Assembly: GCA_963719935.1 (NCBI GenBank)
Contig: CAVRDY010000007.1
Span: 16,335 to 80,334 of the forward strand
Length of the DNA: 64,000 nt
Source: an uncultured Actinomycetes bacterium
Lineage (GTDB): Bacteria > Actinomycetota > Acidimicrobiia > Acidimicrobiales > CAVRDY01
Direction of reading: 5' to 3'
A model generated the notes under the pieces. The model was not told the origin of the DNA. It saw only the letters and a list, made by a program, of their open reading frames with translations, and did not search any database. Within the stretch, counting starts at the first letter, position 1, and the number at the start of each line of letters is the position of its first letter. A program made the translations under genes and the position numbers. Shown here in pieces: positions 9,335 to 56,380 of the stretch.

Positions 9335-10213
9335 ATGGCCCCCGTTCGCACGGCTGTGATCCCAGCAGCGGGGCTCGGCACCCGGCTGTTGCCGGCCACC
9401 AAGTCCCTCCCCAAAGAGATGCTCCCGGTGGTGGACAAGCCGGCGATCCAGTACGCGGTGGAAGAGGCCGCGGCGGCGGGAATCGACGATGTGATCATCG
9501 TGACCAGCCGGCACAAGGAGTCGATGGCGGACCACTTCGACCGCACCCTCGAACTCGAGGAGGCCCTCGAACGCAAGGGACGGAGCCAGGACCTGGAGTC
9601 GGTGCGGGCCGTGACCGAGTTGGCCCAGGTGCACCTGGTCCGACAGCCCCAACCCCTGGGCCTCGGGCACGCCGTGGCGGTGGCCCGTCGCCACGTGGGC
9701 GACCGTCCCTTCGCCGTGCTCCTGCCCGACGACCTCGTCGAGAGCCCAGCCGGCCTCGTGGGCATGGTTGAGGCCCACGACTCCCACCAGGCGTCGGTCA
9801 TCGGCCTCATGCGGGCCACGCCCGAACAGCTCACCCAACTCGGCTGCATCGATCCCGAACAGGTCGAGCCGGGGCTGTTCCGGGTGAGGTCGATCGTCGA
9901 GAAGCCTCCCCTGGGAACCGCCCCCTCGGACCTGTCGGTCATCGGCCGGTACGTGTTCACCCCCGAGATCTTCGACGCCATCGACGCCACCGCTCCCGGC
10001 GTCGGCGGCGAGATCCAACTCACCGACGCCATCGGCCTGTTGAACCGCACCCAGCCCGTGCTGGGCTACGAGTTGCCTGTGCGCCGCTTCGACATGGGCA
10101 AGAAGCTGGACTACCTCCAGACGGTGGTCGAGGTGGCCCTGACCCATCCCGAGGTGGGCGATGACTTCCGGTCCTGGCTGGGTGAGCTGGCCCGACGGGA
10201 AGGCCTGGCGTGA
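9335..10213 (+). CDS. galU: UTP--glucose-1-phosphate uridylyltransferase
   Basis: 292-aa ORF. The N-terminus VRTAVIPAAGLGTRLLPATKSLPKEMLPVVDKPAIQY is the GalU signature. Confidence 0.9.
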   Translation: MAPVRTAVIPAAGLGTRLLPATKSLPKEMLPVVDKPAIQYAVEEAAAAGIDDVIIVTSRHKESMADHFDRTLELEEALERKGRSQDLESVRAVTELAQVHLVRQPQPLGLGHAVAVARRHVGDRPFAVLLPDDLVESPAGLVGMVEAHDSHQASVIGLMRATPEQLTQLGCIDPEQVEPGLFRVRSIVEKPPLGTAPSDLSVIGRYVFTPEIFDAIDATAPGVGGEIQLTDAIGLLNRTQPVLGYELPVRRFDMGKKLDYLQTVVEVALTHPEVGDDFRSWLGELARREGLA

Positions 10214-11430
10214 GCCTCGTCCCTCTGGCCGAGGCCAAGGCCCACGTGGCAGCACGCTGCGCTCGCCTGCCGTTGGTGTCCCTGCCGGCTGCCGAAGCCC
10301 TGGGGTTGGTCCTGGCAGCCCCGGTGGTGGCCGGCGAGGACGTACCCCCTTTCGCCAACACCGCCATGGACGGCTTCGCCGTGCAGGCCGCGGACACCGC
10401 CGACGCTCCGGTGACCCTGACCGTGGTGGACACCCTGACCGCGGGCCGTGCCCCCACCCGGACGGTCGGTCCGGGCGAAGCCGTGCGGATCATGACCGGC
10501 GCTCCCATACCCGAGGGGGCCGACGCGGTGGTGATGGTCGAGCGCACCCACCCCGGCGAGGGAGACGACGGCTCCCGGGTGGTCATCGAGGTGCCGGCCG
10601 CGGTCGGGGACAACATCCGGGGGATCGGCGACGACGTGCGTGTGGGCACAGAGGTCCTGGCTGCGGGCACCCGGCTCGGCCCCGCGCAGCTGGGTGTGCT
10701 GGCGATGTTGGGCGTGGAAGTGGTCGAGGTGGTGCGCCGGGTCAGGGTGGGCGTCTTGTCCACCGGTGACGAGTTGGTGGCCGCCGGCGTTGCCCTGGCC
10801 CCGGGTCAGATCCGTGACTCCAACCGGGCGGCGCTGTTGGCGGCGGTGGCCGCTGCGGGCGTTGAGCCCGTCGACCTGGGCTGGTGCCCCGACCAGGATG
10901 AGGCCATCGAGGAGACGGTGCGCCGGGGGTGTGCCACCTGTGACGCCGTGCTGTCCAGTGGCGGGGTGAGCATGGGCGACGTCGACCTCGTGAAGGTGGT
11001 CCTGGATCGCATCGGCGAGATGCGCTGGATGCAGTTGGCGATCAAGCCGGCCAAGCCCTTCGCCTTCGGAGTGGTCGAGGGCGTTCCCGTGTTCGGCCTG
11101 CCGGGCAACCCGGTGTCGTCGCTGGTGTCCTTCGAGCTGCTGGCCCGCCCCGCCCTTCGGGCCATGATGGGCCACCCCCACCCCGAGCGGTGGCAGTTGC
11201 GGGCGGTCGCCGACCAGGGTCTGGCCCGGCGCGCCGACGGCAAGACCCACTTCGTGCGGGTCCTGGTCGACCACGACCCCGAAGGCACCCTGCACGTGCG
11301 GTCCTCGGGGGGCCAGGGTTCACACCAACTGGGGGCCATGGCTCGGGCCCAGGGTCTGGCCGTGCTGCCCGACGGCGAGGCGGTGGCCCCGGGGGCCGAA
11401 GTCCGGGTCATGCTGCTCGACGCCGAGTGA
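10210..11430 (+). CDS. moeA: Molybdopterin molybdotransferase MoeA
   Basis: 406-aa ORF with MoeA-typical motifs (FANTAMDGFAV, GAPIPEGADAVV, SGGVSMGDVD, GLPGNPVSS). GTGA overlap with galU. Confidence 0.9.
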   Translation: MSLVPLAEAKAHVAARCARLPLVSLPAAEALGLVLAAPVVAGEDVPPFANTAMDGFAVQAADTADAPVTLTVVDTLTAGRAPTRTVGPGEAVRIMTGAPIPEGADAVVMVERTHPGEGDDGSRVVIEVPAAVGDNIRGIGDDVRVGTEVLAAGTRLGPAQLGVLAMLGVEVVEVVRRVRVGVLSTGDELVAAGVALAPGQIRDSNRAALLAAVAAAGVEPVDLGWCPDQDEAIEETVRRGCATCDAVLSSGGVSMGDVDLVKVVLDRIGEMRWMQLAIKPAKPFAFGVVEGVPVFGLPGNPVSSLVSFELLARPALRAMMGHPHPERWQLRAVADQGLARRADGKTHFVRVLVDHDPEGTLHVRSSGGQGSHQLGAMARAQGLAVLPDGEAVAPGAEVRVMLLDAE

Positions 11431-11471
11431 GAGGTTGCCCGGCTCGCGCAGGTACCCCGTATCCTGGCGAG

Positions 11472-12476
11472 GTGGTCGCCTCCCCGGGCTCCGGGCCCGC
11501 ACCCCTGGTCGACGGCTTCGGGCGGGTTCACCGCGACCTGCGCATCTCGGTCACCGACCGGTGCAACTTCCGCTGCACCTACTGCATGCCCGCCGAGGGT
11601 GTCGAGTGGCTTCCCCGCCCCGATCTGTTGACCTACGAAGAGACAGAGCGCATCGCCCGTCTGCTGGTCGAGCGCTTCGGATTCGACTGCATCCGCCTCA
11701 CCGGTGGTGAGCCGACCGTGAGGGCCCGCCTGCCGGTGCTGATCGCCAAGTTGGCCCGCCTCGGAGTGGATCTGGCCCTCACCACCAACGGGGCCACGCT
11801 GGCCACGATGGCCGAGGACCTGGCCACCGCGGGGTTGCGGCGGATCAACGTCTCGCTGGACAGCCTCAGGCCCGACCGCTTCCTGGCCATCACCCGGCGT
11901 GACGCCCTCGACACCGTGGTGGCCGGCATCGAGGCCGCTGTGGTGGCGGGCCTGGACCCGGTGAAGGTGAACGTCGTGGTCACCCGGGGCGTCAACGACG
12001 ACGAGGTCGTGGACTTCGCACGGTTCGGGCGCGACCGGGGTGTCGAGGTGCGCTTCATCGAGTACATGCCCCTGGACGCCTCCGAGCGCTGGCAGGCCGA
12101 GCAGGTGGTTCCCTCCGCCGAAGTGGTGGGCCGTATCGCCGAGGTGTTCCCGGTCGAGGGTGTGGCGCGGGGCCACGAACCCGCAGAACGGTTCCGCTAC
12201 CTCGACGGAGCCGGCTCCTTCGGGGTCATCGGCAGTGTCACCGAGCCGTTCTGTGGATCCTGTGACCGGGTGCGCCTCAGCGCCGAGGGCCGTCTGCGGG
12301 CCTGCCTGTTCGCCCTGGAGGAGCACGATCTGCGCGGTCCCCTGCGCGACGGCGCCGACGACGACGAGTTGGCCACGATGATCGCCGCAGTGGTGGCCGG
12401 AAAGTGGGCCGGGCACGGCATCGGCCGCGTCGATTTCATCCGCCCGGCGAAGTCCATGAGCCAGATCGGCGGCTGA
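11472..12476 (+). CDS. moaA: GTP 3',8-cyclase MoaA (radical SAM)
   Basis: In-frame GTG at 11472 after the moeA stop. LVDGFGRVHRDLRISVTDRCNFRCTYCMP carries the CxxxCxxC radical-SAM cluster. C-terminal CGSCDRVRLSAEGRLRACLF. Confidence 0.9.
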   Translation: MVASPGSGPAPLVDGFGRVHRDLRISVTDRCNFRCTYCMPAEGVEWLPRPDLLTYEETERIARLLVERFGFDCIRLTGGEPTVRARLPVLIAKLARLGVDLALTTNGATLATMAEDLATAGLRRINVSLDSLRPDRFLAITRRDALDTVVAGIEAAVVAGLDPVKVNVVVTRGVNDDEVVDFARFGRDRGVEVRFIEYMPLDASERWQAEQVVPSAEVVGRIAEVFPVEGVARGHEPAERFRYLDGAGSFGVIGSVTEPFCGSCDRVRLSAEGRLRACLFALEEHDLRGPLRDGADDDELATMIAAVVAGKWAGHGIGRVDFIRPAKSMSQIGG

Positions 12477-38877: not shown

Positions 38878-38976
38878 CCCGCGACGAGGGTGGCCGGAGC
38901 GCGTGCGCGTCGACGGTGACACAGATCGAGCCTATGCCCCGAGGCTTCCTGACCTGCGCGACGGGACGGCGCCAGG

Positions 38977-38997
38977 GATCTGACGGGTCGTCAGATC
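38977..38997. promoter_or_regulatory. Perfect 9-3-9 palindrome, candidate repressor operator upstream of the ACAD-SDR pair
   Basis: GATCTGACG-ggt-CGTCAGATC ends 21 nt upstream of the GTG start at 39018. Confidence 0.4.
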
Positions 38998-39017
38998 GGC
39001 GGGTAGCCTGCCTGGCC

Positions 39018-40229
39018 GTGGACCTGTCGCCCCACCCCGAGGACGAATCCTTCCGGGCCGAGGTGCGCGGCTACCTCGCAGCCGCCCTCTCGGGCGAGTT
39101 CGCTGTGGTGCGGGGCCGGGGTGGGCCGGGTGACGAGCACGCCTTCGTCACCGAGCGCCTGGCCTGGGAGCGCCGCCTGGGAGCCGACGGTTGGACCTGT
39201 GTGGGATGGCCCACCGAGCACGGAGGGCAAGGGCTGTCGCTGGACCACCAGATCGTGTTCCACGAGGAGTACGCCCGCGCCGGGGGTCCGGGCCGGGTGG
39301 GCATCGTGGGCGAGGGCCTTCTGGGGCCGACGTTGATCCACTTCGGTTCTCCCGCTCAGCAGCGCCGCTTCCTGCCCGGGATCGTGGCCGGCACCGAGGT
39401 GTGGTGCCAGGGCTACAGCGAACCCGACGCCGGTTCGGACCTGGCCAACCTGAAGACCCGGGCCGTGCTCGACGGCGACCACTGGGTGCTGGAAGGCCAG
39501 AAGGTGTGGACCAGCCTGGCCCACTTCTCGCACTGGTGCTTCGTGCTGGCGCGTACCGACCCCGACGCCGCCCCACACCGGGGAATCACGTACTTCCTGG
39601 TGGCCATGGACAGCCCCGGAATCGAGATCCGACCCATCCGCCAGATCACCGGGACCGCCGAGTTCAACGAGACCTTCTTCGACGGGGTGCGGGTGCCCGC
39701 CGACCAGGTGGTGGGCGAGGTGAACGGTGGTTGGAAGGTGGCCATGGGAACCCTGGCCTTCGAACGGGGCGAGTCGACGCTGGGTCAACAACTCGTGTTC
39801 TCACGCGAGTTCGAAGCGGTGGTGACCACCGCCCGGGCCAACGGCGCGCTCGGTGATCCATCGGTTCGCCAGCGGCTGGCGGCGATGTGGTCACGTCTGC
39901 AGATCCTGAGGTGGAACACCTTGCGTGTGCTCTCTGGTGAGGCCGGCCAAGCCCAACTCAGCGGGGCGGCCATGGTCACGAAGCTCTACTGGGCGAGCCT
40001 GCACCGAGACCTCGGAGACCTGGCCCTGGATGTGTCCGGAGGCGCGGGAACGATCTGCGCCTCCCCCGAGGACGACCCCGCCGACACCGGCGGGTACATG
40101 CTGTCCGCTGCGCAGAAGCTGTTCCTGTTCACCCGGGCTGACACCATCTACGGAGGAACGAACCAGATCCAGCGCAACCTCATCGGCGAGCGGGCCCTGG
40201 GCCTGCCCCGCGAGCCCCGCACCAGCTAA
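39018..40229 (+). CDS. Acyl-CoA dehydrogenase
   Basis: In-frame GTG at 39018. WCQGYSEPDAGSDLANLKTRA..., NGGWKVAMGTLAFERG and IYGGTNQIQRNLIGERALGLP are ACAD motifs. Confidence 0.9.
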   Translation: MDLSPHPEDESFRAEVRGYLAAALSGEFAVVRGRGGPGDEHAFVTERLAWERRLGADGWTCVGWPTEHGGQGLSLDHQIVFHEEYARAGGPGRVGIVGEGLLGPTLIHFGSPAQQRRFLPGIVAGTEVWCQGYSEPDAGSDLANLKTRAVLDGDHWVLEGQKVWTSLAHFSHWCFVLARTDPDAAPHRGITYFLVAMDSPGIEIRPIRQITGTAEFNETFFDGVRVPADQVVGEVNGGWKVAMGTLAFERGESTLGQQLVFSREFEAVVTTARANGALGDPSVRQRLAAMWSRLQILRWNTLRVLSGEAGQAQLSGAAMVTKLYWASLHRDLGDLALDVSGGAGTICASPEDDPADTGGYMLSAAQKLFLFTRADTIYGGTNQIQRNLIGERALGLPREPRTS

Positions 40230-40243
40230 CACCTGGAGGTCCC

Positions 40244-41026
40244 ATGTCCGTGTCGGTCCCGCCCTATCCCCACGGCCGCCAGCTCCTGGTCGGCAGGTCT
40301 GTCGTGGTCACCGCCGCTGCCGGGACAGGCATCGGCCATGCCCTGGCCCGGCGCTGTGCCGAGGAGGGCGCCCGGGTACTCATCAGCGACATGCACGAAC
40401 GCCGCCTGGCCGAGGCGGCCGAACGCCTGGAGGACGTGTGTGGTGGTCGTCCCCCTTCGGTGCGTTGCGACGTGACGGTGGAAGCCGACGTGCAGGCGTT
40501 GTTCGATGCGGCGCAGGACGAGCTCGGCGGGGTGGACGTGATGATGAACAACGCCGGCCTGGGTGGCACGGCCCGCCTGGTGGACATGAGCGACGAGCAG
40601 TGGTCCGCGGTGGTGGACGTGACCCTCAACGGCACCTTCCGCTGCACCCGCGCCGCCTTGCGTCATATGGCGCCCCGGGGCGGGGGCGCCATCGTGAACA
40701 ACGCCTCGGTTCTGGGGTGGCGGGCCCAGGACGGCCAGGCTCACTACGCGGCGGCCAAGGCCGGGGTGATGGCCCTGACCCGGTGCGCGGCGGTGGAGGC
40801 AGCCGGGTCCAACGTGCGGGTCAACGCAGTGGCACCCTCGCTGGCAATGCACCCGTTCCTGGCCAAGGTGACCAGCGACGAGCTGCTGGAGGAGTTGACG
40901 CAGAAGGAGGCGTTCGGGCGGGCCGCCGAGCCCTGGGAGGTTGCCAACGTGATGGTCTTCCTGGCCAGCGATCTGGCCAGCTACCTGACCGGCGAGGTCA
41001 TATCGGTGTCCAGCCAGCACCCGTGA
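40244..41026 (+). CDS. SDR-family oxidoreductase (FabG-like)
   Basis: 260 aa. TAAAGTGIGHA (TGxxxGxG), NNAG, and catalytic YAAAKAG. Confidence 0.9.
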   Translation: MSVSVPPYPHGRQLLVGRSVVVTAAAGTGIGHALARRCAEEGARVLISDMHERRLAEAAERLEDVCGGRPPSVRCDVTVEADVQALFDAAQDELGGVDVMMNNAGLGGTARLVDMSDEQWSAVVDVTLNGTFRCTRAALRHMAPRGGGAIVNNASVLGWRAQDGQAHYAAAKAGVMALTRCAAVEAAGSNVRVNAVAPSLAMHPFLAKVTSDELLEELTQKEAFGRAAEPWEVANVMVFLASDLASYLTGEVISVSSQHP

Positions 41027-41029
41027 GGG

Positions 41030-41623
41030 TTGGTTCGCCCCTGGCTCGCACCGGGCGCGTGCCATGCTCTGGTCGTGGATGCGGGAGCAGGCAAGGTGGT
41101 GCGCGTGGGTGTCACCGGGCACCGTGCGCTGGCCGCACAGGATGCGCTGGCCCGGGCCGTCGACGCCGTTCTCGACGACGTCCTGGCCGGCGTGGGCGGG
41201 GGAGAAGACCCCGACCGATGTCCGACGCTGGAAGTCGTGTCGTCGCTGGCCGAGGGAGCCGACCGCCTCGTCGTCGACCGGGTGCTGGTGCACACCGGCA
41301 GCCGCCTGGTGGTGGTGCTGCCCCTCGACCCCGACGACTACGAGACCGACTTCGCCGACCCGGCCTCGGTCGGTGCCTTCCGGGCGATGCTCGAGCGGGC
41401 GGCCGAGGTGGAGATCACCGGACCCGACCCCGGCGGCAGCCGGGAGTCGGCCTACGAGCGGGCCGGGCAGGCCGTCGTCGAACGCTGCGACGTGCTGCTC
41501 GGCCTCTGGGACGGCACCTCGTCGCGAGGCAGGGGCGGCACGGCCGACATCATCGACCACGCCCGGGAGCGAGGTCGTGCCGTGGTCATCGTCCCCGTCA
41601 CCCGAGCTGAGCCCCAGCCATGA
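41030..41623 (+). CDS. Stand-alone SLOG/DprA/YpsA-like Rossmannoid protein (predicted nucleotide-derivative binding); the true start is probably GTG at 41096
   Basis: Sequence VRVGVTGHR...SSLAEGADRLVVDRVL...RLVVVLPLDPDDYETDF...YERAGQAVVERCDVLLGLWDG...GGTADIIDHARERGRAVVIVPV. This mirrors the SLOG/DprA layout: N-terminal G-rich strand, [S/G]xAxGxD, a parallel strand, then D-hhhhh-W/Y-D-G...GGT...A...G+xVhhhP. The SD-like gggagcagg precedes 41096. Confidence 0.55.
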   Translation: MVRPWLAPGACHALVVDAGAGKVVRVGVTGHRALAAQDALARAVDAVLDDVLAGVGGGEDPDRCPTLEVVSSLAEGADRLVVDRVLVHTGSRLVVVLPLDPDDYETDFADPASVGAFRAMLERAAEVEITGPDPGGSRESAYERAGQAVVERCDVLLGLWDGTSSRGRGGTADIIDHARERGRAVVIVPVTRAEPQP

Positions 41624-41659
41624 CGGCGGAGCCCCAGTCATGACGGCGGAGCGCAGGCA

Positions 41660-43369
41660 ATGAGGTGGATCGACTCGTCGCGGCGCCGCTGGTACCTGCT
41701 GGCCGCCTGCTGGGTCGGCCTCCTGGTGATCGGCATGGGTGGCTTCATCGAGCAGTCCCACGAAGGTGACCTGGGTCGCGGCTTCCTGGACAACCTGTAC
41801 CTGACACTCCAGCTCGCCACCCTCGACTACGACGGCGGCTCCACCGCCCTCAACTGGCGGCTTGAGATCGCCCGGTTCGTGGCCCCCGTCATGGCTGCGG
41901 GCACCGTGCTGCAGACGGCGTCGGTGGTCTTCCGTGACCAGTTCCTGCGCTGGCGCATCGGCTTCTCCAAAGGGCACACGGTTGTGTGTGGCCTCGGTCC
42001 CGCCGGCACCCGCCTGGCCATCGCCCTGGCCCGCGAGGGGCACCCGGTCGTGGGTGTCGACGCCGACCCGGCCGCCAGTGGCCTGGCCGCGCTACGTGAC
42101 GCCGACGTCCCCGCCCTGGCCGGGGATCCCACCGATGCCGAAGTGCTCCTTGCCGCACGGGTCGACCGGGCGGCGCAGGTGGTGGCCTTCGACCGCGACG
42201 ACGCCGCGAATGTGGCGGTCACGGCCGCAGTTCGTGCGGTGCCCCGCCACGGCAACGACACCGCTCTGCGGTGCTCGGTGCACCTGACCGACGCCGAGCT
42301 CACCGAACTGCTGCGCGGGGCCGATCTGGGTGGCAGCAGCGACGTGCGCGTCGAGTTCTTCAACCTGCACGAGCGGGGGGCCCGGGCGTTGCTGGGCGAG
42401 GTGGAGGCCTTCGGGGACGGGTCCCGGCCCCCGCACCTGGTGGTCGTGGGGATGGGCCAACTGGGCCGCAGTCTGGTGGTGGCCGCCGCCCAGCAGTGGG
42501 CCGAGGTGGGCCAAGGGCCCCTGGTCGTATCGCTGGTCGACCGGGACGCCGCCGGACGGTGGAACGCGCTGCTCCTCCAGCACCCGGCCCTGGAGGCGGC
42601 CGCCGACGCCCGCTGCCTCGCCTTCGATCTGGAGGCCCCCACCGCCGACATGGTCCAGCGCTTCACGACCGTGCTGCTCGACGAGGCCCCCACCGCAGTG
42701 GCCGTCGTGCTGGCCGACGAGTCCCTGGCCCTGTCCACCTCCCTGTTCGTGCACAAGACCCTGGGCCGCCCGTCGGTGCCGGTGGTGGTGCGCACCAGCG
42801 CCGATGCCGGGCTGGCGGGAATCGTCACCTCGACCGGCACCCCCGATCCGCACCAGCCGGCTCGATTCCCGGGTCTGGTGCTGTTCCCGTTCCTCGACCG
42901 CACCTGCTCGCCGGCCATCATCGAGGGCGGTGTGCGTGAGCAGTTGGCCCGCGCCATCCACGAGGACCACACCGCACGGGCAGGCCACGACGGGGGTCTG
43001 CACCGTCCCTGGGACCAGCTCGACGACGCCGAGCGTGAGTCGAGTCGCCGGGCCGCCGACGGAATCGTCGACACCCTGGCAGACGTCGGTTTCGAGCTCG
43101 TACCGCTGCGACGCTGGGGAGCGGCCGAGGTTCCCTTCACCGACGCCGAGGTGGAGCGACTGGCCCGGGTCGAGCACGAACGTTGGCGAGCCGAACGCCA
43201 GGCCCAGGGTTGGCGCCACGGGCCCTCCCGCGACGACGACGCCAAGCTCAACCCGCTGCTGGTCGCCTGGGTCGATGCTCCAGCAGAAGCCCAGGCCGCC
43301 AACCGGGACGCCGTGCGGACCCGCCCCGGCATGCTGGCGAGAGCAGGCTTCGAGCTGGCCCGCAGCTGA
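41660..43369 (+). CDS. 2-TM P-loop cation-channel-like protein fused to two TrkA-N/RCK Rossmann domains and a C-terminal RyR domain
   Basis: 569 aa. TM1 is WYLLAACWVGLLVIGMGGFI. Pore-helix/filter-like segment FLDNLYLTLQLATLDYDGG (compare T-V-G-Y-G-D). TM2 is LEIARFVAPVMAAGTVLQTASVVF. RCK1 is HTVVCGLGPAGTRLAIALAREGHPVVGVDAD and RCK2 is HLVVVGMGQLGRSLV. C-terminus LARAIHEDHTARA...WDQLDDAERESSRRAADGIVDTL...LARVEHERWRAERQAQGW...NPLLVAWVDAPAEAQAANRDAV resembles RyR (PF02026-type) repeats. Confidence 0.7.
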   Translation: MRWIDSSRRRWYLLAACWVGLLVIGMGGFIEQSHEGDLGRGFLDNLYLTLQLATLDYDGGSTALNWRLEIARFVAPVMAAGTVLQTASVVFRDQFLRWRIGFSKGHTVVCGLGPAGTRLAIALAREGHPVVGVDADPAASGLAALRDADVPALAGDPTDAEVLLAARVDRAAQVVAFDRDDAANVAVTAAVRAVPRHGNDTALRCSVHLTDAELTELLRGADLGGSSDVRVEFFNLHERGARALLGEVEAFGDGSRPPHLVVVGMGQLGRSLVVAAAQQWAEVGQGPLVVSLVDRDAAGRWNALLLQHPALEAAADARCLAFDLEAPTADMVQRFTTVLLDEAPTAVAVVLADESLALSTSLFVHKTLGRPSVPVVVRTSADAGLAGIVTSTGTPDPHQPARFPGLVLFPFLDRTCSPAIIEGGVREQLARAIHEDHTARAGHDGGLHRPWDQLDDAERESSRRAADGIVDTLADVGFELVPLRRWGAAEVPFTDAEVERLARVEHERWRAERQAQGWRHGPSRDDDAKLNPLLVAWVDAPAEAQAANRDAVRTRPGMLARAGFELARS

Positions 43370-43392
43370 CCGCTGGTTGCGCGGCCGGTGGG

Positions 43393-46300
43393 CTAGTTGC
43401 GCGACTGGAGGTCGGCGATCATCTGGTCGAGCTGGGCCACCATGGCCTGTAGTTGGGGGCCGTAGCCGGCCGCGGTCCGGCGGGCCTGGTGCAACGCGTC
43501 GAGAGCCTCGGGCACGCGGCCCAACAGGCCCAGCAGCTCCCCACGGTTGGCGGTGGCGAACAGCACCCCCTGGGCGTTGCCGCCGGCCTGGGCCAGGCCC
43601 AACTGCTCCTCGACGCAGGCCAACGCCTCGGCGAGGTCACCCTGGTAGCGCAAGACGATGGCCTGGTTGCCCACGCAGGCCGCCAAGCCGACCTGGTCGC
43701 CGAGTCGCCGGCACAAGACGTCCTGCTCGTCGAGCAAGGCAGCGGCCTGGGTCAGCAACGCGTGGTCGACGTTGGTGGCGTCGCCGGCCGCCCCGGCGGG
43801 CTGTGCCCGGTTGATGCACAGCAACGCCTGCTCGCCCAGCGCCCGCTGGAGGGCGGCGTCGTCACCCAGAGCCCGGTAGGCGACCACCAGCGACGACCAC
43901 AACGACTCGGCATTGGCGGTGTCACCGACCTGATAGGCGAGGCCGATGCCCTGTTCGCCCCACTGCTTGGCTGACGCCGCAACCCCCAGCCGGGCAGCCG
44001 CGTCGGCAGCTCTGGCGTAGTCCGCGACAGCGGCCGCCAGGTCCTGGTGCTGGTGGTGGACCTGAGCCCGGTTGGCCAGTATCGGCAGCAGCGTCGAGTA
44101 GGCCCGCAGCTCTGTCAGGACCGGTTCGGCCTGGCCGTAGCGTTCGAGGGCGTCCGCCCAGCGCTGCTCGGCGAGGTCACAGGTGCCCAGGTTGACGGTG
44201 GCCACGGCCACGGCGTGGCGATCACCGGTTGCCTGGGCCACCCGCAGCTCCTCTTCGTGGGTCGCCCGGCACCCCGCCAGGTCGCCCTGTTCACGGCGGG
44301 CCGTGCCGATGAGACCCAGGGCCACGGCGGTCTGGGTGGCCGCGCCGGCGTTGCGGGCGGTCAGCTCGGCCTCACGGGCCCGGCGTTCCACCTCGGGCCA
44401 GTCGCCGCTCATCGATGCGGCCATGGCACCGGCGGACAGAACCCTTGCCAGCATTCCCGAATCGGCCATCTTGCGAGCCAGGGACTCGGCTTCGGCCGCA
44501 GTGGCCAGAGCCGCGTCGAGATGAGCGAGTTGGCTGTGCATGACCACCTGGTTGAGGAGCGCCTCGAGCAGTCCCCGGCGGTCGCCCATCTCACGGCAGG
44601 TCTCTGCGTGGGCCACGGTCAGCGCCAGCGCCTCGCTGATGTCACCCCGATCAGCCAGGATCGATGCCCGCCCTGCACGCGCCCGGGACACGCCGAGCGG
44701 GTCGCCGGCATCCAGGCACAGCTGCTCCTGCTCGTCGATGCGGGCCAGTGCCTCGTCGAAGCGAGCCTGGAGGACCAGCAGCTGGGCCTGGTTGCCCAAG
44801 TTGGCTTGGAGGTCTGCGGTGTCACCCCGTTGGCGGCAAAGGGCCTCTTCCTCGGCGAACAGCGCAGATGCCTCCTGGGTGCGACCGGCGTCGCGGCACA
44901 CCATGGCCAGGTTGCCCATGGCAGCCCCCAGCAGGGCCTGGTCTTCCGCGGCCCGGCCGCGCTCGACGGCCTCGCGCAGCACCGGGTCGGCCCCGGCCAG
45001 GTCACCCTGGGACCACAGGGCCGCACCGAGGTTCACCAGGGCGGCCCGGAGCCTGGAGTCACCGCCGGGTGCGTCGTCCCGCCCGGCGGAGGACCGGCGG
45101 GCCTGGTCCACCAGGAACCTGTTGAGCACCAGCGCCTCGGCGGGGTGGCCGGCATCGGTGAGCAGGCGCGCCACGCCCCACACGAGGTGGCGGCGCCCCG
45201 CGATCCCCGTCACCCCCTCTGACCCTTCGGCGGCTGCGGGTGGCGGCCCGGTCTCGCTGGCGGCCGGGTCGTCGAGAACGGGCCGGTAGACGTCGGTCAT
45301 GGAGTGGCCTGCGGACTCGGCGTGCACCCAGAGCCGGCGCAGGTCACCTACCGAACGCACGTAGGCCACTTCGGTGAACGCCAGGTCGGCCAGGGTGTGG
45401 GCCAGCCCGGCGGTGTCTCCTGCTCCCAGCTGTTGCCATCCCAGCTCGTCGACGACCCGGTCACCCAGCGGCCGTCCGGCGAAGTAGGCGGCCAGGCGTG
45501 CGTGGGCGGCTCGTTGCGCCGCGTCGTCGGACAGGTAGCGGTCGGTCACGGCCCGGCGGAGGTGTTCGGTGCCGAACCCCACCAGCCCGGCCCGTGTCAC
45601 CAGGCCCTGCTCAGCTGCCAGGAACAGGGGTGACCAGACGGCCCGGGGAGGGGGGTGGCGTCTCCGGGACCGAGCAGGTCGAGCAGCTCGGCTTCGGCCA
45701 GGCCCCGCCGGGCGGCCCACAGCAGTGAGAAGGCGTCGCGGGTGAGCCCGGGACGGTCACGTTCGAAGTCGCGCTCGTAGCGGGTGAGCACCAACTCGAA
45801 CAGGTCGTCGACCGTGTCGGCAGCCAGCAGGTGGTCGATCAGCTCACCAAGGGTGAAGTGGTCGCCGTGCTGGCGCAGCTCGTCCAGCACGGTCCGCAGG
45901 TACAGCGGGTTACCTGTGCGGGGGGCCTGGGTCAGGCGCAGCAGGTGGTGCTCGTCGAGACCCTTCGAGAACCGGGCGAGGAAGGTGGTGATCAACATCC
46001 GGCGCTCGTCCTCGTCGAGGGGGGGCACCTCCAGGCTCGGCCAACCCCGGCCGAGCGCAGCGGCCAGGGGGCGCCCGCCCGCCGAGGTGAGCACCACCCG
46101 CACTCCGCCCGCTGGAACCGCAGGGAGCCAGCCCAGGTCAGGGGCACCATCCTCGTCCACGAGGCGGTCCACGCCGTCGAGCACCAGCACGGTGCGCCGG
46201 GCGCCGGCGCCGGCCTGTAGCAGGGCGTGGGCCAGCGCTGCCCGCAGGCCGGGGGCATCGGCGGGCAGGTCGTCGGGACCAGTACCAGACCAGTCGTCGC

Positions 46301-47270
46301 TACCGTTACCGGGCTGCTCGTCGTTGCCGGTGTGGCTGTGGGCCCGCGCCAGCTCGCCGATCAGGCGGCCGGCCAGCTCCCGCCAGTCCGCGGACGCTGC
46401 GGTGGCACCCACGTAGTGCTCGATCACGACCTCGTCGGGCCGGGTGGCGCGCCGTGATGCCGCCCAGTGGGCCACCAGTGCCGAGGCCCCGGCGCCCGAT
46501 TCGCCGGTGACGACCAGCGGAGGTCCGGCCCCGTCGGCTTGTGCCTCGAGGCGGGCGGCCAGTGCGGGCCGGGCCACGAAGCCGGCGAAGCGGCTGGCGG
46601 CGAAGGCGGCGTGCTCGGCGGCGGCCCGGTCGAGGGGGTCGGGCAGGGAATGCTCGGGGTAGAGGCGGTCGACGAGGGCACTGAGGTCGGCCAGCACCTG
46701 GTCGCCCAGAGCCGCAGGATCGGGGTAGTCGCGCACTGGGTGCCCAGAGGTGCGGATGCGGTCCTTCAGCGCCTCGAGCTTCGCCACTCCCTCAGGGGTG
46801 TCCTCGAGGAAGAGGCCCTGCTCGTCGCCGGGCAGTCCCTCGACCCAGGCCGGGTCACGCAGATAGAAGAAGGCGTGGCCGGCGGCCTCGGGGTCGTTGA
46901 TGACGCCGTGGAGGATCTCCATCTCGGTGACCGAACGCCCGCGGGCGTCGGCCAGCCAGCCCAGCTCGGCGGCCAGGTCGGCGGGGATCTCGTCGGGGAC
47001 CCAGCCATAGCGTTGGCCCAGCAGGCCGATGAAGTACGGGCGGCTCCGTTCTATCTCTGCCAGGCAGATGGGCAGCACCGCCCCCTCGGCCTTCTGCTCG
47101 TCGGTGACCCCCCAGCGCAGGTCGACCTCGCTCCAGGTGACGCCCCGCTCCTCGCAGCGTCGGCGGACCTGGGGGAACACCCGCTTTACCAGCTCCTCGC
47201 GCTCGAGCTGCATGTCGCGGAACGTGGAGGAGATGAAGACCCGGATCACCCGGGGATCGGTGTCGCTCAC
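43393..47270 (-). pseudogene. DUF4062-NACHT-TPR STAND NTPase, split by a single frameshift (ORFs 45597..47468 and 43393..45720)
   Basis: Likely GTG start at 47270. DUF4062 hallmark IRVFISSTFRDMQLEREELVKRVFPQVRRRCEERGV. P-loop region PLVVTGESGAGASALV. Walker B RTVLVLDGVDRL. The winged-helix region continues across the frame change (..LLGPGDATPLP | RAVWSPLFLAAEQGLVTRAGLVGFGTEHLRRAV). It is followed by about 700 aa of TPR repeats. Confidence 0.8.
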
Positions 47271-47316
47271 CGCCAGATCCTCGCACCCCCGTCCGCCCCC
47301 TCGGTCAGAGAACGAG

Positions 47317-47541
47317 TCAATACCACCACATGTCGTGGCGCTTGCGTTCGCGCCGTACGTCTTTTGCGCCGAACTCGGTGGGTAGCTCCATCCCATCGGA
47401 GAGCCGGCGCAGCCGGTAGCCCGTGTCGGCGGTTGCGAGTACCTCGAAGCCGCGGGCCCAGGAGTCATCGAAGCGCTTGCGCACCTCCACCCGTGTGCCC
47501 GCCGGGAGGTCGAGTGCCAGCCGTGTCGCGACCTCGGTCAT
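47317..47541 (-). CDS. Small hypothetical protein (74 aa) between rnhB and the STAND gene
   Basis: The internal ATG at 47541 is preceded by ggggaaggggg. MTEVATRLALDLPAGTRVEVRKRFDDSWARGFEVL...KRHDMWWY. No family recognised. Confidence 0.45.
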   Translation of the reverse strand: MTEVATRLALDLPAGTRVEVRKRFDDSWARGFEVLATADTGYRLRRLSDGMELPTEFGAKDVRRERKRHDMWWY

Positions 47542-47706: not shown

Positions 47707-48405
47707 TCAGGTGAACAGCTGTTGCTGGCCGGCGGGTGGGGTGCGGGGGCAGCCCGTCCAGGGCTGGTGGTCCATGAACACCCAGCTGCGGCGGTGGATG
47801 GCTGTGGGGCCCATGCCGGCCAGAGCCATCTGGTGGCGCGGGCAGGGGTAGCCCTTGTTGTGCTCGAAGTCGTAGCCGGGGTGATGGATCGCCTCGCCGC
47901 GCATGATCCGGTCGCGGGTCACCTTGGCGAGGATCGAAGCCGCGGCGATCGACAGGCACGTGGCGTCGCCCTTCACGATGCTCTCCGTGATCCCCCCGCC
48001 AACGAAGTCCCACGACCCGTCCACCAACACCCGGTCGGGTACGACTCCAAGCGCTTCGAGGGCGCGGCGGGCAGCCAGGCGTTGCGCGGCGGACATGCCG
48101 AGCGCGTCGCACTCGTCGTGGCTGGCATGTCCTACCGACCACGCCTCGCACCATCCCGCCACCCGGTCGAAGATCGCTTCCCGCTCGGCCTCGGTGAGCA
48201 TCTTGGAGTCGCGCAACTTGTAGACACGCCGCTCCGAGGGGATCACCGCGGCCCCGACCGTGAGGGGTCCCGCCCACGATCCCCGGCCCACCTCGTCCAC
48301 TCCCACGACCACGCGGTGACCGTCGGACCACAAAGCCTGTTCCCGTTGCCGCGACGGTGCCCGGTGGCGGAGAGCCTTGCGGAGCGGCGGGACCGTTGCG
48401 GCCAT
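47707..48405 (-). CDS. rnhB: Ribonuclease HII
   Basis: 232 aa. VVGVDEVGRGSWAGPLTVGA, DSKML and SIAAASILAKVTRD are RNase HII motifs. Confidence 0.9.
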   Translation of the reverse strand: MAATVPPLRKALRHRAPSRQREQALWSDGHRVVVGVDEVGRGSWAGPLTVGAAVIPSERRVYKLRDSKMLTEAEREAIFDRVAGWCEAWSVGHASHDECDALGMSAAQRLAARRALEALGVVPDRVLVDGSWDFVGGGITESIVKGDATCLSIAAASILAKVTRDRIMRGEAIHHPGYDFEHNKGYPCPRHQMALAGMGPTAIHRRSWVFMDHQPWTGCPRTPPAGQQQLFT

Positions 48406-48528
48406 TGCCGGGACCCTACCGGTCCGACCTGATCCGGGTGCGCTACCGTCGCCTCATGCGACTGGCGACCATGTCCAGGCCAACACCTGCGCGACCCGCG
48501 GTGGGTCACCCCCGCCACGTCATGGCCG

Positions 48529-54491: not shown

Positions 54492-55766
54492 TCAGCGCTG
54501 GGTGCCCACCGCCAGCTCGCGGAAGGGTGAGGTGGTGTTGATTCCCGGGTCCTTGGGGAGGCCCAGCACACGCTCGCCCACGATGTTGCGCAGCACCTCG
54601 TCGGTGCCGCCGGCGACGCGCATGCCGGGGACGCCCAGGAGCATCCCGTTCCAGGCGTAGGTGCCCCACTCGCCGGTGTCGGCGGTGATGCGGGGCCCCA
54701 GGACCCGGGCCACGAACTCGGTGACCCGGCACAGGTTGTCGGTCAGCGCGAGCTTGGCGATCGACATCTCGGGGCCGGGGAGCTGGCCTGCCTTGATCTT
54801 GTCCATGGCCCGCTGGTTGGTGAACTTGGCCACCTGGAAGTGGACGTACAGGTCGGCCAGCTCGTCACGCACCGAGCGGGTCGTCGCGACAGCCGAAGTG
54901 GTCGACCAACAGGGTGAGCCGCTCGATGAGCCCCAGGCCGCCCCCGCCACCTCCGGCCGCGCCCGCACCGATCGAGGCTCGCTCGTTCATGAGCGTGGTG
55001 AGCGCCACACCCCAGCCCTGGTTCACGTCACCGAGGCGATGGTGTCGGGGACCCGCACCTCGTCGAAGAACACCTCGTTGAAGGCGGCGCCACCGGTCAT
55101 CTGGCGCAGGGGTCGCACCTCCACCCCGGGTGCGTGCATGTCCACGACGAAACCGGTGAGACCCTTGTGCTTGGGTTGTTCGACGTCGGTGCGGCAGATG
55201 ATCTCGCCGATGTCGGAGTAGTGGGCGCCCGAGGTCCACACCTTCTGGCCGGTGAGGAGCCACTCGTCGCCGTCGCGCTCGGCGCGGGTCTGGAGGCTGG
55301 CCAGGTCCGAGCCGGCACCCGGCTCGCTGAAGAGCTGGCAGCCCACGATGTCACCCCGGTACAGCTTGGGGAGCAGGTCGGCGGCCACCTCGGGCCGAGC
55401 GTGGTCCTTGATGGTGGGGGCCACCATGCCCAAGCCGATCCCGAAGAAGGTCTGACTGGGCACCTCGTAGCGGGACTCGAGGCTGGAATAGGCACGCTCG
55501 AAGGTGCCGGGCAGCTCACGGCCCCCCAGCTGGGCGGGGCCGGTGATCCAGCCCAGCCCGGCGTCGAAGCGCTTGGCACGCCACGCTTTGGCCTTGGCCA
55601 GCTCTTCCAGCTCGACGGTGCGGTCGACCTCCTCGAACAGTGAGACTTCGTCGGAGCCTTGGCCCCATTCAGCCTGGGTGTCGTTGGTCTCGACGCGACG
55701 TGTGGCGTTGGCGTCGAGGAAGGAAGTGACCTCGGAGCGGAACTCCTCGAGGGTGATCTCAGCCAT
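54492..55766 (-). pseudogene. Acyl-CoA dehydrogenase interrupted by two frameshifts (about 55044-55052 and about 54873-54880)
   Basis: It comes in three consecutive pieces. ORF 55023..55814 reads MAEITLEEF...CQLFSEPGAGSDLASLQTRA...FNEVFFDEVRVPD. ORF 54865..55263 reads ..LGDVNQGWGVALTTLMNERASIGA.. ORF 54492..54968 reads ..VRDELADLYVHFQV...RVAGGTDEVLRNIVGERVLGLP. Confidence 0.8.
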
Positions 55767-55798
55767 GGCGGGCCTCCGGTTAACAGTGTTCGCTCTTC

Positions 55799-55814
55799 TT
55801 GACCGTGCGGTCAA
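55799..55814. promoter_or_regulatory. Perfect 16-bp palindrome upstream of the frameshifted ACAD (candidate operator)
   Basis: TTGACCG-tg-CGGTCAA lies 33 nt upstream of the ATG at 55766, in a divergent intergenic region. Confidence 0.3.
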
Positions 55815-55876
55815 TCTACCGGGCGCCCTCCTTCGGTGCCGAACCGTGGGGCGCTGTCTCCGGGTAGCGTGAGCCG

Positions 55877-56380
55877 ATGGTACGTGTGCGCTGGTGGGTC
55901 CTGGCGATCTGGGGTGGTGTGACCGCTCTCACCTGGTCGGTGCGGGTCGTCAACGTCTGGAGTGACCTTCTGCCCAGCACCGAGGAGCGGGTGGCGGTCA
56001 CCGCCGTCGCCGCCAGCTTCGTGGTTCTGGGCCTGGTGGTGAGCGTGCTGTCGCTCGGCATGCGCCGCTACCTGCCCACCCGGGGAGACCACATCATCGT
56101 GGGGGCTCTGGCAGGCTGGACCGTGGGCGTGTGGGCCATGCGCATCCTCGCCATCGCCGCCGGCGACCACACCACCGGATTCGTGGCCGTTCACGCCCTG
56201 GTAGCGGGGGTGTCCATGGCCCTGGCAGTGGTCTGCTGGCGGGAGGTGGCCCGGTTGCCGGTTCCCGAACGCCCTCCCGCCGAGGGGAACTTCGAGAGTG
56301 CCACGGACCCCGGGCCGGAAGCGCCGGACACGGCTGACGTTGTGAGCACCGCGAGCACCGCGAGCACCGCGAGCGCCTGA
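55877..56380 (+). CDS. Hypothetical integral membrane protein (4 predicted TM helices)
   Basis: 167 aa with an ATG start. Hydrophobic helices are WWVLAIWGGVTALTW, VAVTAVAASFVVLGLVVSVLSL, IIVGALAGWTVGVWAMRILAI and FVAVHALVAGVSMALAVVCW. Confidence 0.6.
   Translation: MVRVRWWVLAIWGGVTALTWSVRVVNVWSDLLPSTEERVAVTAVAASFVVLGLVVSVLSLGMRRYLPTRGDHIIVGALAGWTVGVWAMRILAIAAGDHTTGFVAVHALVAGVSMALAVVCWREVARLPVPERPPAEGNFESATDPGPEAPDTADVVSTASTASTASA

Follow-up and report, generated by a model that had tools for sequence, protein, structure and literature searches.

A DUF4062-STAND gene convergent with a SLOG-channel gene pair: a possible NAD+/ADP-ribose-centered conflict module of Actinomycetota

Introduction

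The DUF4062 domain, for which a TIR- or nucleoside deoxyribosyltransferase-like nature had been given in a preliminary description of the locus reported here, has been published as an NADase, which hydrolyzes NAD+ to ADP-ribose (ADPR) and nicotinamide (bioRxiv 10.64898/2026.05.01.722283; bioRxiv 10.64898/2026.09.04.749371). The characterized DUF4062 enzymes are NAD+-depleting effectors, DUF4062 genes are enriched near defense genes, and all the bacterial examples tested are anti-phage. NIR (DUF4062)-Avs (PsAvs2) and other NLR-like DUF4062 defense proteins (bioRxiv 10.64898/2026.09.04.749371), as well as Swarozyc and Evangelion, have, as does the protein described here, an N-terminal DUF4062 NADase head with a conserved catalytic Glu, a STAND module, and C-terminal TPR. 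NIR-Avs converts NAD+ to ADPR and nicotinamide, and the same output is expected of our protein. The published DUF4062-Avs proteins are encoded by single genes and act through NAD+ depletion alone, so that a second effector is not required. Whereas the described DUF4062 defense systems are single genes or, in the case of Vesta, paired with a phosphatase, the gene here is conserved beside those for a SLOG protein and a channel.

Thoeris (type I ThsB-ThsA and the predicted SLATT/ion-channel types) likewise uses a TIR-type NAD+ enzyme (bioRxiv 10.64898/2025.12.03.692087); as proposed here, the SLOG-type ligand pocket is on another protein, and the outcome is damage to the membrane. ThsA binds cADPR through its SLOG domain. 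However, the enzyme here is a DUF4062 domain fused to a STAND-TPR sensor and not a free TIR, the SLOG domain stands alone as a small protein, RCK and RyR Repeat12 (R12) domains are found in the proposed effector, and the genes converge, whereas those of Thoeris form an operon. The Thoeris survey purposely dropped TIRs within Avs proteins as mere NAD+ depleters (bioRxiv 10.64898/2025.12.03.692087).

Results

The window, which is the whole stretch of 64,000 nucleotides analyzed from an uncultured Acidimicrobiales bacterium (contig CAVRDY010000007.1), contains a SLOG gene and a channel gene on the plus strand that converge on a DUF4062-STAND-TPR gene on the minus strand, the three forming a block of about 6.2 kb (41096-47249).

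38916-40229: ACAD, upstream flank
40244-41026: SDR, upstream flank
41096-41623, plus: SLOG-fold protein (YpsA/YAcAr-like), 175 aa, GC3 frame, directly upstream of the channel gene
41660-43369, plus: GsuK-like channel gene, 569 aa (Pfam TrkA_N, E=1.7e-16; RyR, E=1.4e-11)
43370-43392: intergenic gap of 23 nt between convergent stops (ORF coordinates)
45597-47468 and 43393-45720, minus: STAND gene as found, two overlapping ORFs
47707-48453, minus: RNase HII, downstream flank

The genes sit in true coding frames as judged by a GC3/GC2 frame plot, which, together with the ORF calls, bears out the presence of the SLOG, channel, and STAND genes as preliminarily described, and the identification of the flanking genes confirms the placement of the block between ACAD/SDR and the RNase HII region. 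The stop codons (that of the channel gene ending at 43369 and that of the STAND gene being 43393-43395) agree with the gap of 23 nt, and the matches obtained with Pfam, phmmer, and Foldseek agree with the domain identities originally given. Two points had to be amended. The end coordinate of 47541 was too far, the likely start codon of the STAND gene being GTG at 47249 (47270 at the furthest), and the supposed island character did not hold: the flanks examined carried no further defense or mobility genes, and the window shows no defense-island context. Neither a GC anomaly in the window, nor a tRNA by the block, nor repeats flanking it were found, and the block has no island character apart from the insertion itself.

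The frameshift previously noticed in the STAND gene is present in the sequence and is mended by one inserted C. The insertion of this C in the run GCCACCCCCCTCCCC^GGG (about 45642-45655) results in a single ORF of 1285 aa, in which the 3' part is contiguous with the 5' part, and the repaired junction LLDLLGPGDATPLPRAVWSPLF agrees with LLDLLGATAGAPLPRAVLSPVY in the homologue at locus L005. As a second 1-nt deletion adjoining a C run splits another ACAD gene at about 55030, faulty assembly is the probable cause of the frameshift, and the gene is unlikely to be a pseudogene. The parts of the STAND gene, which is on the minus strand, and the frameshift site are as follows.

47211-47231: motif SSTFRDM of the NADase head
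46695-47249: DUF4062/NIR TIR-like NADase head (Pfam DUF4062, E=1.1e-13, in the 5' ORF)
47001-47018: motif GQRYGW of the head
46914-46934: catalytic motif SVTEMEI of the head
45645-46694: STAND NTPase module (Pfam AAA_16, AAA_22)
46482-46505: degenerate Walker A, GESGAGAS
46167-46187: Walker B, LVLDGVD
45642-45655: frameshift site, 1-nt deletion in a C/G homopolymer tract
43393-45644: winged-helix region and TPR sensor repeats (Pfam TPR_12, E=3e-21, and other TPR families)

A phmmer comparison of the head with the TIR-like domain of human TEP1 (PDB 11gz) gave E=1.3e-28 with 177 residues aligned, and the equivalents of TEP1 R908, R976, and E1008 are kept in the alignment. This comparison identifies the head as a TEP1-like NADase domain in which the catalytic residues are intact. 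In human TEP1, the TIR-like head is also N-terminal to a STAND/NACHT-type NTPase; unlike the protein described here, TEP1 has WD40 repeats, resides in vault and telomerase particles, and has no known channel partner. The Walker A lysine is missing throughout the channel-linked clade, which sets it apart from the NIR-Avs–type systems, and is present in all other homologues of the alignment. Between close loci, the TPR domain shows moderate conservation (50-57%). In a PADLOC search, the 3' part matched only a generic TPR model, and the SLOG and channel proteins were both unrecognized.

The channel protein, which is identical to database protein P0001, was modeled by AF2 with a pLDDT of 86, and the top Foldseek matches of the model were GsuK (4gx0/4gx5), the TrkA ring, MthK, and RyR3 Repeat12. 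On this model, a 2-TM pore whose filter is degenerate is joined to two Rossmann/RCK domains and, at the C-terminus, a RyR Repeat12; these parts, all on the plus strand, are as follows.

41678-41962: pore module from AF2 secondary structure (TM1, residues 7-36; pore helix, 42-54; filter-like loop TLDYDGG, 55-65; TM2, 66-101)
41969-42904: two tandem Rossmann/RCK domains (TrkA_N at residues 108-194; AF2/Foldseek match to TrkA and the GsuK tandem RCK)
42911-43366: RyR Repeat12-like domain of two repeats (Pfam RyR, E=1.4e-11)

In each subunit of GsuK and MthK (PDB 4gx0-4gx5, 6oly), a TM1-P-TM2 pore likewise precedes two RCK/Rossmann domains, and GsuK, the closest structural match, has been solved in ADP- and NAD-bound forms (PDB 4gx1, 4gx2). 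In contrast to these channels, the filter reads TLDY(D/G)GG and deviates from the K+ signature TVGYGD, and an additional C-terminal RyR Repeat12 and a linked SLOG gene are present. The segment FLDNLYLTLQLATLDYGGG is nearly invariant in the conservation profile of the channel family, and the translation and profile indicate two RCK GxGxxG motifs, GLGPAG and GMGQLG, each with an acidic residue after beta-2.

The Repeat12 domain matched R12 of RyR1, RyR2, and RyR3 at 1e-12 to 1e-14 by phmmer and that of RyR3 with a TMt of 0.5-0.59 by Foldseek. The ligands of RyR/R12 domains include ADPR, cADPR isomers, and adenine nucleotides (PMC13232231). As in phage RyDEP (PMC13232231; PDB 6uhh, 9l9b), PF02026 is present in two repeats forming an R12-like domain, and the ligand-contacting His and Trp are invariant, H506 and W509 of the channel family corresponding to RyDEP H75 and W78. 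Unlike RyDEP, the domain is host-encoded and fused to a channel, with Asn (N531 and N548, mapped by spacing) at what appear to be the positions of RyDEP H100 and D117. Because of these Asn residues, ligand binding seems likelier than glycosidase activity. The Repeat12, which was absent from the preliminary account, is the best candidate for a reader of an ADPR-type ligand.

The small protein encoded directly upstream is identical to database protein P0121. It has no Pfam match itself, and PF10686 YAcAr was matched by 21 of the 48 members of its family. Its AF2 model (pLDDT of 95) gave YpsA 2nx2 (TM 0.71), ShosA, the ThsA SLOG domain, MCP, and LOG as the top Foldseek matches and also matched phage YAcAr/DUF2493 proteins, indicating, at the level of a predicted structure, a YpsA/YAcAr-type SLOG fold. 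In the loci compared, the SLOG gene is separated from the channel gene by 0-45 nt or overlaps it by 4 nt, and this tight spacing suggests that the SLOG protein is an auxiliary channel subunit.

The co-occurrence called for in the preliminary description was found across genomes. In a channel-seeded scan, a convergent STAND gene was downstream in all six loci with a channel identity of at least 40% and an available flank, these being from Thermoleophilia, Ilumatobacteraceae, and other Actinomycetota, and a STAND-seeded metagenome scan again yielded the convergent SLOG-channel pair in L016, L018, L022, and L045. The channel is present in 11 of the 13 loci of the STAND clade of the window that had enough flank (L007 included). 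Only 1 of the 45 pairs of the 10 positive loci shares more than one flanking gene, so that the module has been kept in about nine different genomic contexts. The channel and STAND trees, built quickly by NJ with no support values and including loci from related MAGs that are not independent, group alike (L004 with L006, L016 with L022, and L003 with L018) and are broadly congruent. The STAND gene occurs without the channel among housekeeping genes at L027 and L041, where it shares the degenerate P-loop of the linked clade. The channel occurs without STAND at L013-L015 and L096-L098, five of these six also being without SLOG, and the solo channels represent one derived clade in the channel tree and not the ancestral state. 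Unrelated genes (sigma factor, Dps, SDR) lie between the partners in L004, L016, L022, and L045, which, together with the convergence, excludes co-transcription of STAND and the channel. No association of the module with plasmids or viral contigs was found.

In other DUF4062-STAND clades, different RyR and/or SLOG genes are repeatedly located directly upstream on the same strand, with architectures including RelA_SpoT-TPR-LSDAT-RyR, AAA-RyR, RyR-TPR-S-SLOG-cyclase, SLOG-DUF4231 with TM helices, and TM-TrkA_N. Such genes numbered 28 within 3 kb of STAND genes versus 4 further off, and many of the encoded partners are soluble multidomain proteins without a pore.

Discussion

The retention of the trio across distant genomes points to a defense circuit, not described before, whose channel may be opened by the breakdown of NAD. 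We consider it an even call whether the three genes constitute one conserved NAD+/ADPR-centered conflict module of Actinomycetota, which would probably represent NADase-based immunity in a previously undescribed form; no link between a DUF4062 NADase and RyR-domain ADPR sensing was found in the searchable literature. Such a module could consist of an NLR/Avs-like protein of about 1285 aa, in which TPR is the presumed invader sensor, STAND would oligomerize, and DUF4062 would cleave NAD; the 175-aa SLOG protein as a channel auxiliary; and a GsuK-like tetramer with a non-K+-type filter and, per subunit, two putative dinucleotide-binding RCK domains and an R12 nucleotide pocket. Taking the NADase chemistry of DUF4062 and the ADPR/cADPR binding by RyR from the literature, and building on the gene structure, the domains, the intact NADase motifs, and the co-localization and co-inheritance of the genes, we infer the trigger, ligand, reading site, channel gating, and phenotype as follows. 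Recognition of an invader by the TPR domain would lead to assembly of the STAND protein, and the NADase heads would then turn NAD+ into ADPR (or a close derivative) and nicotinamide. Because TEP1 yields ADPR/ADPRP only, with no special ADPR derivative or dedicated signal, and DUF4062 enzymes deplete NAD+, the signal would have to be ADPR itself or the loss of NAD+. The drop in NAD+ and rise in an ADPR-type ligand may be sensed at the Repeat12, RCK, and/or SLOG sites, and the opening of the pore would allow cation flow and membrane depolarization, resulting in growth arrest or abortive infection in addition to NAD+ depletion.

TRPM2, whose N-terminal MHR1/2 domain is SLOG-like, is a channel gated by ADPR, and, in plants, TIR-NLRs produce ADPR-derived signals that lead to helper-NLR Ca2+ channels. 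In both, as proposed here, a cation channel is opened by a nucleotide derived from NAD+, and either a SLOG-type pocket or a TIR-type enzyme borne on an NLR is involved; however, their pores have no homology to the one here, and the likeness is one of analogy and not of membership.

The genes could instead be two independent neighbors, namely, a self-sufficient DUF4062-Avs–type NAD+ depleter and an unrelated nucleotide-regulated cation channel with a SLOG subunit, the channel serving either physiology or a separate defense. This is unlikely in our estimation, although it would accord with the sufficiency of NIR-Avs, Vulcan, Swarozyc, and Evangelion as single genes, the solo STAND loci, the channels found alone among housekeeping genes (L014, L015, and L096-L098), and the convergence of genes with unrelated insertions between them. 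The channel family is, moreover, very large (1463 clusters at E<=1e-30), and most of its members probably lack such a partner. On the other hand, co-occurrence in 11 of the 13 loci of the clade, in about nine unrelated contexts, the broadly congruent trees, and the derived position of the solo channels argue against independence, as do the recurrent RyR/SLOG neighbors of other DUF4062-STAND clades and the coincidence of the linkage with the clade-specific loss of the Walker A lysine.

A linkage of function could also take the form of regulation, with the SLOG and RyR-channel proteins not being effectors. They might buffer or degrade basal ADPR-type products against autoimmunity, like phage RyDEP sponges/glycosidases or the Vesta/Metis phosphatases, or lie upstream of a STAND protein that has a degenerate NTP switch and is licensed by ion or nucleotide status. 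RyR-domain proteins are able to sequester or cleave cADPR signals, Vesta has tightly linked accessory genes that are dispensable for defense, and both the poreless soluble partners in other clades and the lost Walker A lysine would fit; however, a membrane pore with a gating ring would be an odd design for a buffer, Asn at the likely position of the RyDEP catalytic Asp argues against a glycosidase, and STAND persists alone with the same degenerate P-loop. We regard such regulation as rather improbable. Very improbable in our view is a role apart from phages, in which NAD+ status would be coupled to membrane potential in an actinobacterial circuit for stress, dormancy, or development. The ordinary metabolism genes flanking the block, the lack of plasmid or viral-contig association, and a TPR domain that is not hypervariable speak for it, and the enrichment of DUF4062 genes by defense genes and the anti-phage activity of all the tested bacterial examples speak against it. 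So does the NLR-like architecture, along with STAND paralogues in tandem arrays, found at many metagenome loci and typical of diversifying immune receptors.

Organization and genomic setting of the module

The module under study consists of a SLOG gene and a channel gene on the plus strand, which converge on a gene for a DUF4062-STAND-TPR protein on the minus strand. Because the G+C content of the window is approximately 72%, long ORFs are present in every frame; real genes were chosen by a codon-position GC plot together with a GC3-GC2 gene call.

Genes of the module and its immediate flanks
38916-40229, plus strand, acyl-CoA dehydrogenase (ACAD), GC-based gene call
40244-41026, plus strand, SDR, GC-based gene call
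41096-41623, plus strand, 175-aa ORF, SLOG protein
41660-43369, plus strand, 569-aa ORF, channel, TrkA_N and RyR (Pfam)
43370-43392, 23-nt gap between the convergent stop codons
43393-45720, minus strand, STAND 3' ORF, TPR families (Pfam), overlapping the 5' ORF
45597-47468, minus strand, STAND 5' ORF, DUF4062 and AAA_16 (Pfam), overlapping the 3' ORF
47707-48453, minus strand, RNase HII

The ORF coordinates reproduce exactly the 23-nt convergent gap claimed in the preliminary description, the observation of which was confirmed as a whole. Its interpretation of the block as an island was not, as the 10 kb on each side holds ordinary metabolism genes, a histidine kinase and an S-layer esterase, and the block has no compositional anomaly and no nearby tRNA or flanking repeats that would mark an insertion. 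It is therefore a 6.2-kb insert among housekeeping genes rather than a recognisable defence island; the part of that interpretation that stands is the gene linkage, with the mechanism kept as a proposal. A scan of viral contigs for the channel gave no match, and plasmid searches gave distant RyR-only or DUF4062-only matches and nothing closer, so that these searches give no support to mobility. On the window, PADLOC returned only a generic TPR match, and a promoter and terminator scan gave no usable signal at this high G+C content.

On the minus strand, the overlap of the two STAND ORFs lies around GCCACCCCCCTCCCCGGG, and the insertion of one C yields a single ORF of 1285 aa, the repaired junction of which (LLDLLGPGDATPLPRAVWSPLF) agrees with that of the intact homologue in L005 (LLDLLGATAGAPLPRAVLSPVY; L numbers denote homologous loci from the genome scan, the metagenome scan or single look-ups). 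The homologues of L001, L004 and L005 each lie within one long ORF. A second lesion was found in an ACAD gene at 54492-55928 on the minus strand, which is split into two ORFs, one with the middle domain and the other with the C-terminal domain, at a junction near 55030 with a 1-nt deletion beside a C run (ACC^AT). A true STAND pseudogene was judged less likely in view of this lesion of the same type and of the intact homologues. With two 1-nt lesions in 64 kb, a homopolymer error of the assembly is the favoured explanation of the frameshift, as judged from the assembled sequence.

Linkage of the STAND and channel genes

A genome scan seeded with one channel protein, not with an alignment, yielded 12 loci. 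A convergent STAND homologue was present downstream in all six loci that had a channel identity of at least 40% and a downstream flank (L001 and L003-L007), all from MAGs that belong to Thermoleophilia, Ilumatobacteraceae and other Actinomycetota, and the SLOG gene was located immediately 5' of the channel gene in L002-L007. L001 carries, at 8293-11668, two tandem paralogous channels and the convergent STAND gene without SLOG; these channel copies adjoin the clade of solitary channels in the channel tree. All six individually checked channel homologues (L013-L015 and L096-L098) were without a STAND gene; L013 retains SLOG, and the other five are solitary in housekeeping surroundings. By neighbour joining, the solitary channels were united in a single derived clade, with the linked channels basal and paraphyletic. 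The solitary channel of L014 (5420-8985) comes straight after ClpB, near an Abi_alpha gene.

The reciprocal linkage was evaluated by a metagenome scan with an alignment of the STAND N-terminal part, which yielded 80 loci that were subjected to six-frame HMM scans and placed in a tree, where one STAND clade holds the window. The co-occurrence proposed as a check in the preliminary description was borne out, as STAND and channel genes were present together in 11 of the 13 loci of this clade with enough flank, L019 being borderline in the count. The channel-positive members with at least 5 kb downstream are the window, L001, L003-L006, L016, L018, L022 and L045, to which L007 is added as a further channel-positive locus. 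The exception is the sister pair L027 and L041, where the STAND gene stands alone among housekeeping genes and no replacement effector was found beside it. Among the 45 pairs of positive loci, only L016 and L022 have more than one flanking gene in common; the linkage is therefore not residual synteny. L004 with L006, L016 with L022 and L003 with L018 were grouped together in both the channel tree and the STAND tree. The two genes are neighbours and not an operon, since unrelated genes lie between them in four loci: PNPOx-like, YciI-like and ECF sigma-factor genes in L016 (11889-14206) and L022 (8538-10758), a Dps-like gene in L045 and an SDR gene in L004. Taken together, the gene linkage is well supported.

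The STAND protein and its DUF4062 head

The head of the STAND protein matched DUF4062 (Pfam, E=1.1e-13) and was aligned over 177 residues with the TIR-like domain of human TEP1 (PDB 11gz, E=1.3e-28). When TEP1 residues were mapped with the offset set by R908 in SSTFRDM, the counterparts in the window head were the second Glu in SVTEMEI for the catalytic E1008 and the Arg in GQRYGW for the sulphate-binding R976, all three motifs being conserved in every homologue examined. The protein thus has the N-terminal DUF4062 with a predicted catalytic glutamate that defines NIR-STAND defence proteins, NIR being the DUF4062 NADase head. DUF4062 is the effector of the Avs/NLR-like, Swarozyc, Evangelion, Vulcan and Vesta defence systems (bioRxiv 10.64898/2026.05.01.722283; 10.64898/2026.09.04.749371), and the TIR/NDT-like nature of the head given in the preliminary description proved correct, its biochemistry now being published in the same preprints. 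The closeness of this actinobacterial head (46695-47249, minus strand) to the human TEP1 domain, including the GRSVTEME motif, is unusual.

The STAND module has an AAA_16 match (Pfam) and the Walker B Asp, and its Walker A sequence, GESGAGAS (46482-46505), departs from the canonical GxxGxGK[ST]. The Walker A lysine was missing in 19 of 19 members of the window clade (the window, L001, L003-L006, L016-L020, L022-L024, L027, L028, L035, L041 and L045), in which GESGAGAS, GxGTS, GADLT and GCGVS were found as variants; the approximately 70 other homologues recovered all have GxGKS/T at this position, and Walker B and the NADase motifs are retained in both groups. TPR_12 and other TPR families (Pfam), at approximately residues 226-606 of the 3' ORF, constitute a C-terminal repeat sensor. 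NCBIfam gave nothing specific on the N-terminal part. At least two DUF4062-STAND paralogues per locus, usually as same-strand tandems, were observed in L021, L026, L047, L048, L055 and L058 and likewise in L075, L078, L080, L083, L084 and L091, a pattern expected of diversifying immune receptors.

The channel and SLOG proteins

The channel was modelled by AlphaFold2 with a pLDDT of 86. After TM2, the model has two Rossmann domains and then a helical C-terminal domain.

Membrane part of the channel in the AlphaFold2 model
Residues 7-36, TM1
Residues 42-54, pore helix
Residues 55-65, filter loop, low confidence
Residues 66-101, TM2

By Foldseek, the model was aligned with GsuK, a multi-ligand K+ channel, including its full-length chains (E=3e-9 to 1e-8), with the TrkA gating ring and MthK as further matches, and a sequence search agreed (GsuK 4gx0, 3e-5). 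The predicted topology, TM1-pore helix-TM2 followed by an RCK gating ring, is that of the GsuK/MthK class, and the model indicates that the 569-aa protein is likely to form a pore. The nearly invariant filter motif is TLDYDGG in the window and TLDYGGG in the family consensus, and the K+ signature TVGYGD is absent from the channel; K+ selectivity is not expected of the predicted pore on the basis of this motif. Each of the two Rossmann domains keeps its GxGxxG motif and, following beta-2, an acidic residue. The full architecture is widespread, as it was found in 1463 clusters (50% identity, E<=1e-30).

The C-terminal domain matched RyR (Pfam PF02026, E=1.4e-11) and the Repeat12 domain (R12) of RyR1-3 at 1e-12 to 1e-14 in the sequence search, and Foldseek placed it on Repeat12 of human RyR3. 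It is a two-repeat R12 with the conserved His and Trp, H506 and W509, which are invariant and match the His and Trp contacting ADPR in the phage RyR-domain enzyme RyDEP. The positions of RyDEP H100 and of its catalytic D117 are Asn in the channel, the latter being the nearly invariant N548 (by spacing from H506). The glycosidase dyad of RyDEP is formed by H75 and D117, and from the Asn at the second of these we infer that R12 is more likely a binding pocket than a glycosidase. Binding or cleavage of 2'/3'cADPR is known from RyDEP and related proteins (PMC13232231), and there are crystal structures of RyR3 R12 with bound ATP and ADP (PDB).

The 175-aa SLOG protein (record P0121) has 1468 relatives at E<=0.001. 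Pfam and NCBIfam gave no match to the window protein itself; 21 of 48 relatives matched PF10686 YAcAr (best E=2.6e-6), and a few matched DprA. Since a search of the family profile against PDB sequences gave marginal TraI matches only, fold comparison was needed for its placement. The AlphaFold2 model from the family alignment (pLDDT 95) best matched YpsA (2nx2, E=8.7e-7, TM 0.71) by Foldseek, followed by ShosA, the SLOG domain of ThsA (Thoeris), the Moco carrier protein (MCP) and LOG, and also matched many phage YAcAr/DUF2493 proteins. The motifs GHR, LAEGADR and GxGGT are invariant. As modelled, the small protein is a genuine SLOG fold with Gly-rich loops, of the YpsA/YAcAr branch and an uncurated family. 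A 20-nt tandem duplication (GCTGAGCCCCAGCCATGACG / GCGGAGCCCCAGTCATGACG, 41606-41645) straddles its stop codon. In the annotated relative L013, the end of the SLOG gene overlaps the beginning of the channel gene by 4 nt; in the window, the two are kept 36 nt apart by this duplication.

Proposed mechanism and alternatives

The module is probably a variant of NADase-based immunity. In its most economical reading, to which we give an even chance, the TPR-STAND protein would sense an invader and assemble, its NADase heads would convert NAD+ to ADPR, the NAD+/ADPR shift would be read by the R12, RCK and/or SLOG pockets, and the non-selective pore would open, adding depolarisation to the loss of NAD+. 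Here, the folds, motifs and linkage are observed, the enzyme chemistry and the binding by R12 are taken from the cited preprints, and the remainder is our inference. The more specific version, in which the TEP1-type NADase of an NLR-like receptor serves as both signal generator and NAD+ drain and ADPR or a derivative gates the cation channel directly via the R12 pocket and the SLOG subunit, is put forward tentatively, as somewhat less probable than not.

The two units might instead be independent and merely neighbours. Published NIR systems suffice as single genes and both partners are also found solo, as in the sister pair without a channel and the channels in housekeeping surroundings; beside this stands the presence of both genes in most window-clade loci, and we consider such independence unlikely. 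The degenerate P-loop makes attractive the idea that the SLOG/RyR proteins are buffers or upstream licensors of the STAND protein, which nevertheless seems improbable to us, and a non-defence circuit coupling NAD to membrane potential seems more improbable still.

The proposed NADase-to-channel module would work similarly to Thoeris, and to this extent the Thoeris-like logic suggested in the preliminary description holds; membership does not, there being no free TIR and no operon. Whereas in Thoeris a stand-alone TIR signal synthase, ThsB, shares an operon with the effector, DUF4062 is here part of a STAND-TPR protein whose gene converges on those of SLOG and the channel; and whereas the Thoeris effector reads an ADPR-derived signal through a SLOG/Macro pocket fused to a toxic domain, SLOG is here a separate 175-aa protein and the pore has predicted R12 and RCK pockets of its own. 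The STAND gene resembles those of NIR-Avs-like proteins in its DUF4062 head and TPR sensor but lacks their canonical Walker A, and the channel resembles GsuK but differs by its non-K+ filter and the added R12 domain. The DUF4062 papers nowhere mention SLOG, TrkA, RyR or channels, and the RyDEP paper (PMC13232231) does not discuss host channel fusions; other searches of the accessible literature found no DUF4062-RyR link, with an earlier mention of SLOG-TrkA/RyR possible in the founding SLOG work (Burroughs et al, 2015).

The characterisation of DUF4062/NIR NADases, human TEP1 among them, dates only from 2026, as does that of the RyR-domain ADPR binders. From the conserved module, with R12 fused to a pore and SLOG beside it, it would seem that NADases carried by STAND proteins are able to act through a second effector in the membrane, a possibility excluded by design in current surveys; the systematic Thoeris survey expressly discarded TIRs within Avs proteins (bioRxiv 10.64898/2025.12.03.692087). 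The module also makes nucleotide gating via R12 tractable in a bacterial setting, with relevance to the long-standing dispute over how cADPR acts on ryanodine receptors. If the channel is indeed gated by ADPR, it could represent a prokaryotic forerunner of animal ADPR/cADPR-to-RyR/TRPM2 signalling and likewise of plant TIR-NLR-to-Ca2+-channel immunity, and would offer a simple system for asking whether R12 domains sense (c)ADPR under physiological conditions.

RyR and SLOG partners of other DUF4062-STAND clades

Outside the window clade, RyR and/or SLOG genes were found at 15 further loci of the 80, mostly directly upstream of the STAND gene and on the same strand. The partner architectures were RelA_SpoT-TPR-LSDAT_prok-RyR, AAA/MoxR-RyR, RyR-TPR-S-SLOG-guanylate cyclase, a protein that joins SLOG to the membrane domain DUF4231, and a TM-TrkA_N protein. 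The density of RyR/SLOG was 28 in 289 kb within 3 kb of STAND versus 4 in 218 kb farther away, a five-fold enrichment with a binomial p=2e-4 for loci that are not all independent. Of the arguments for a functional link, this recurrence of differing solutions around one enzyme family is the strongest. The RyR/SLOG genes around DUF4062-STAND look like an undescribed partner network, and we predict that such a network extends more widely around these receptors. Large multidomain proteins that end in RyR or bear SLOG were observed directly 5' of DUF4062-STAND in the metagenome loci L031, L051, L055, L057 and L062, and likewise in L073, L078, L083 and L084.
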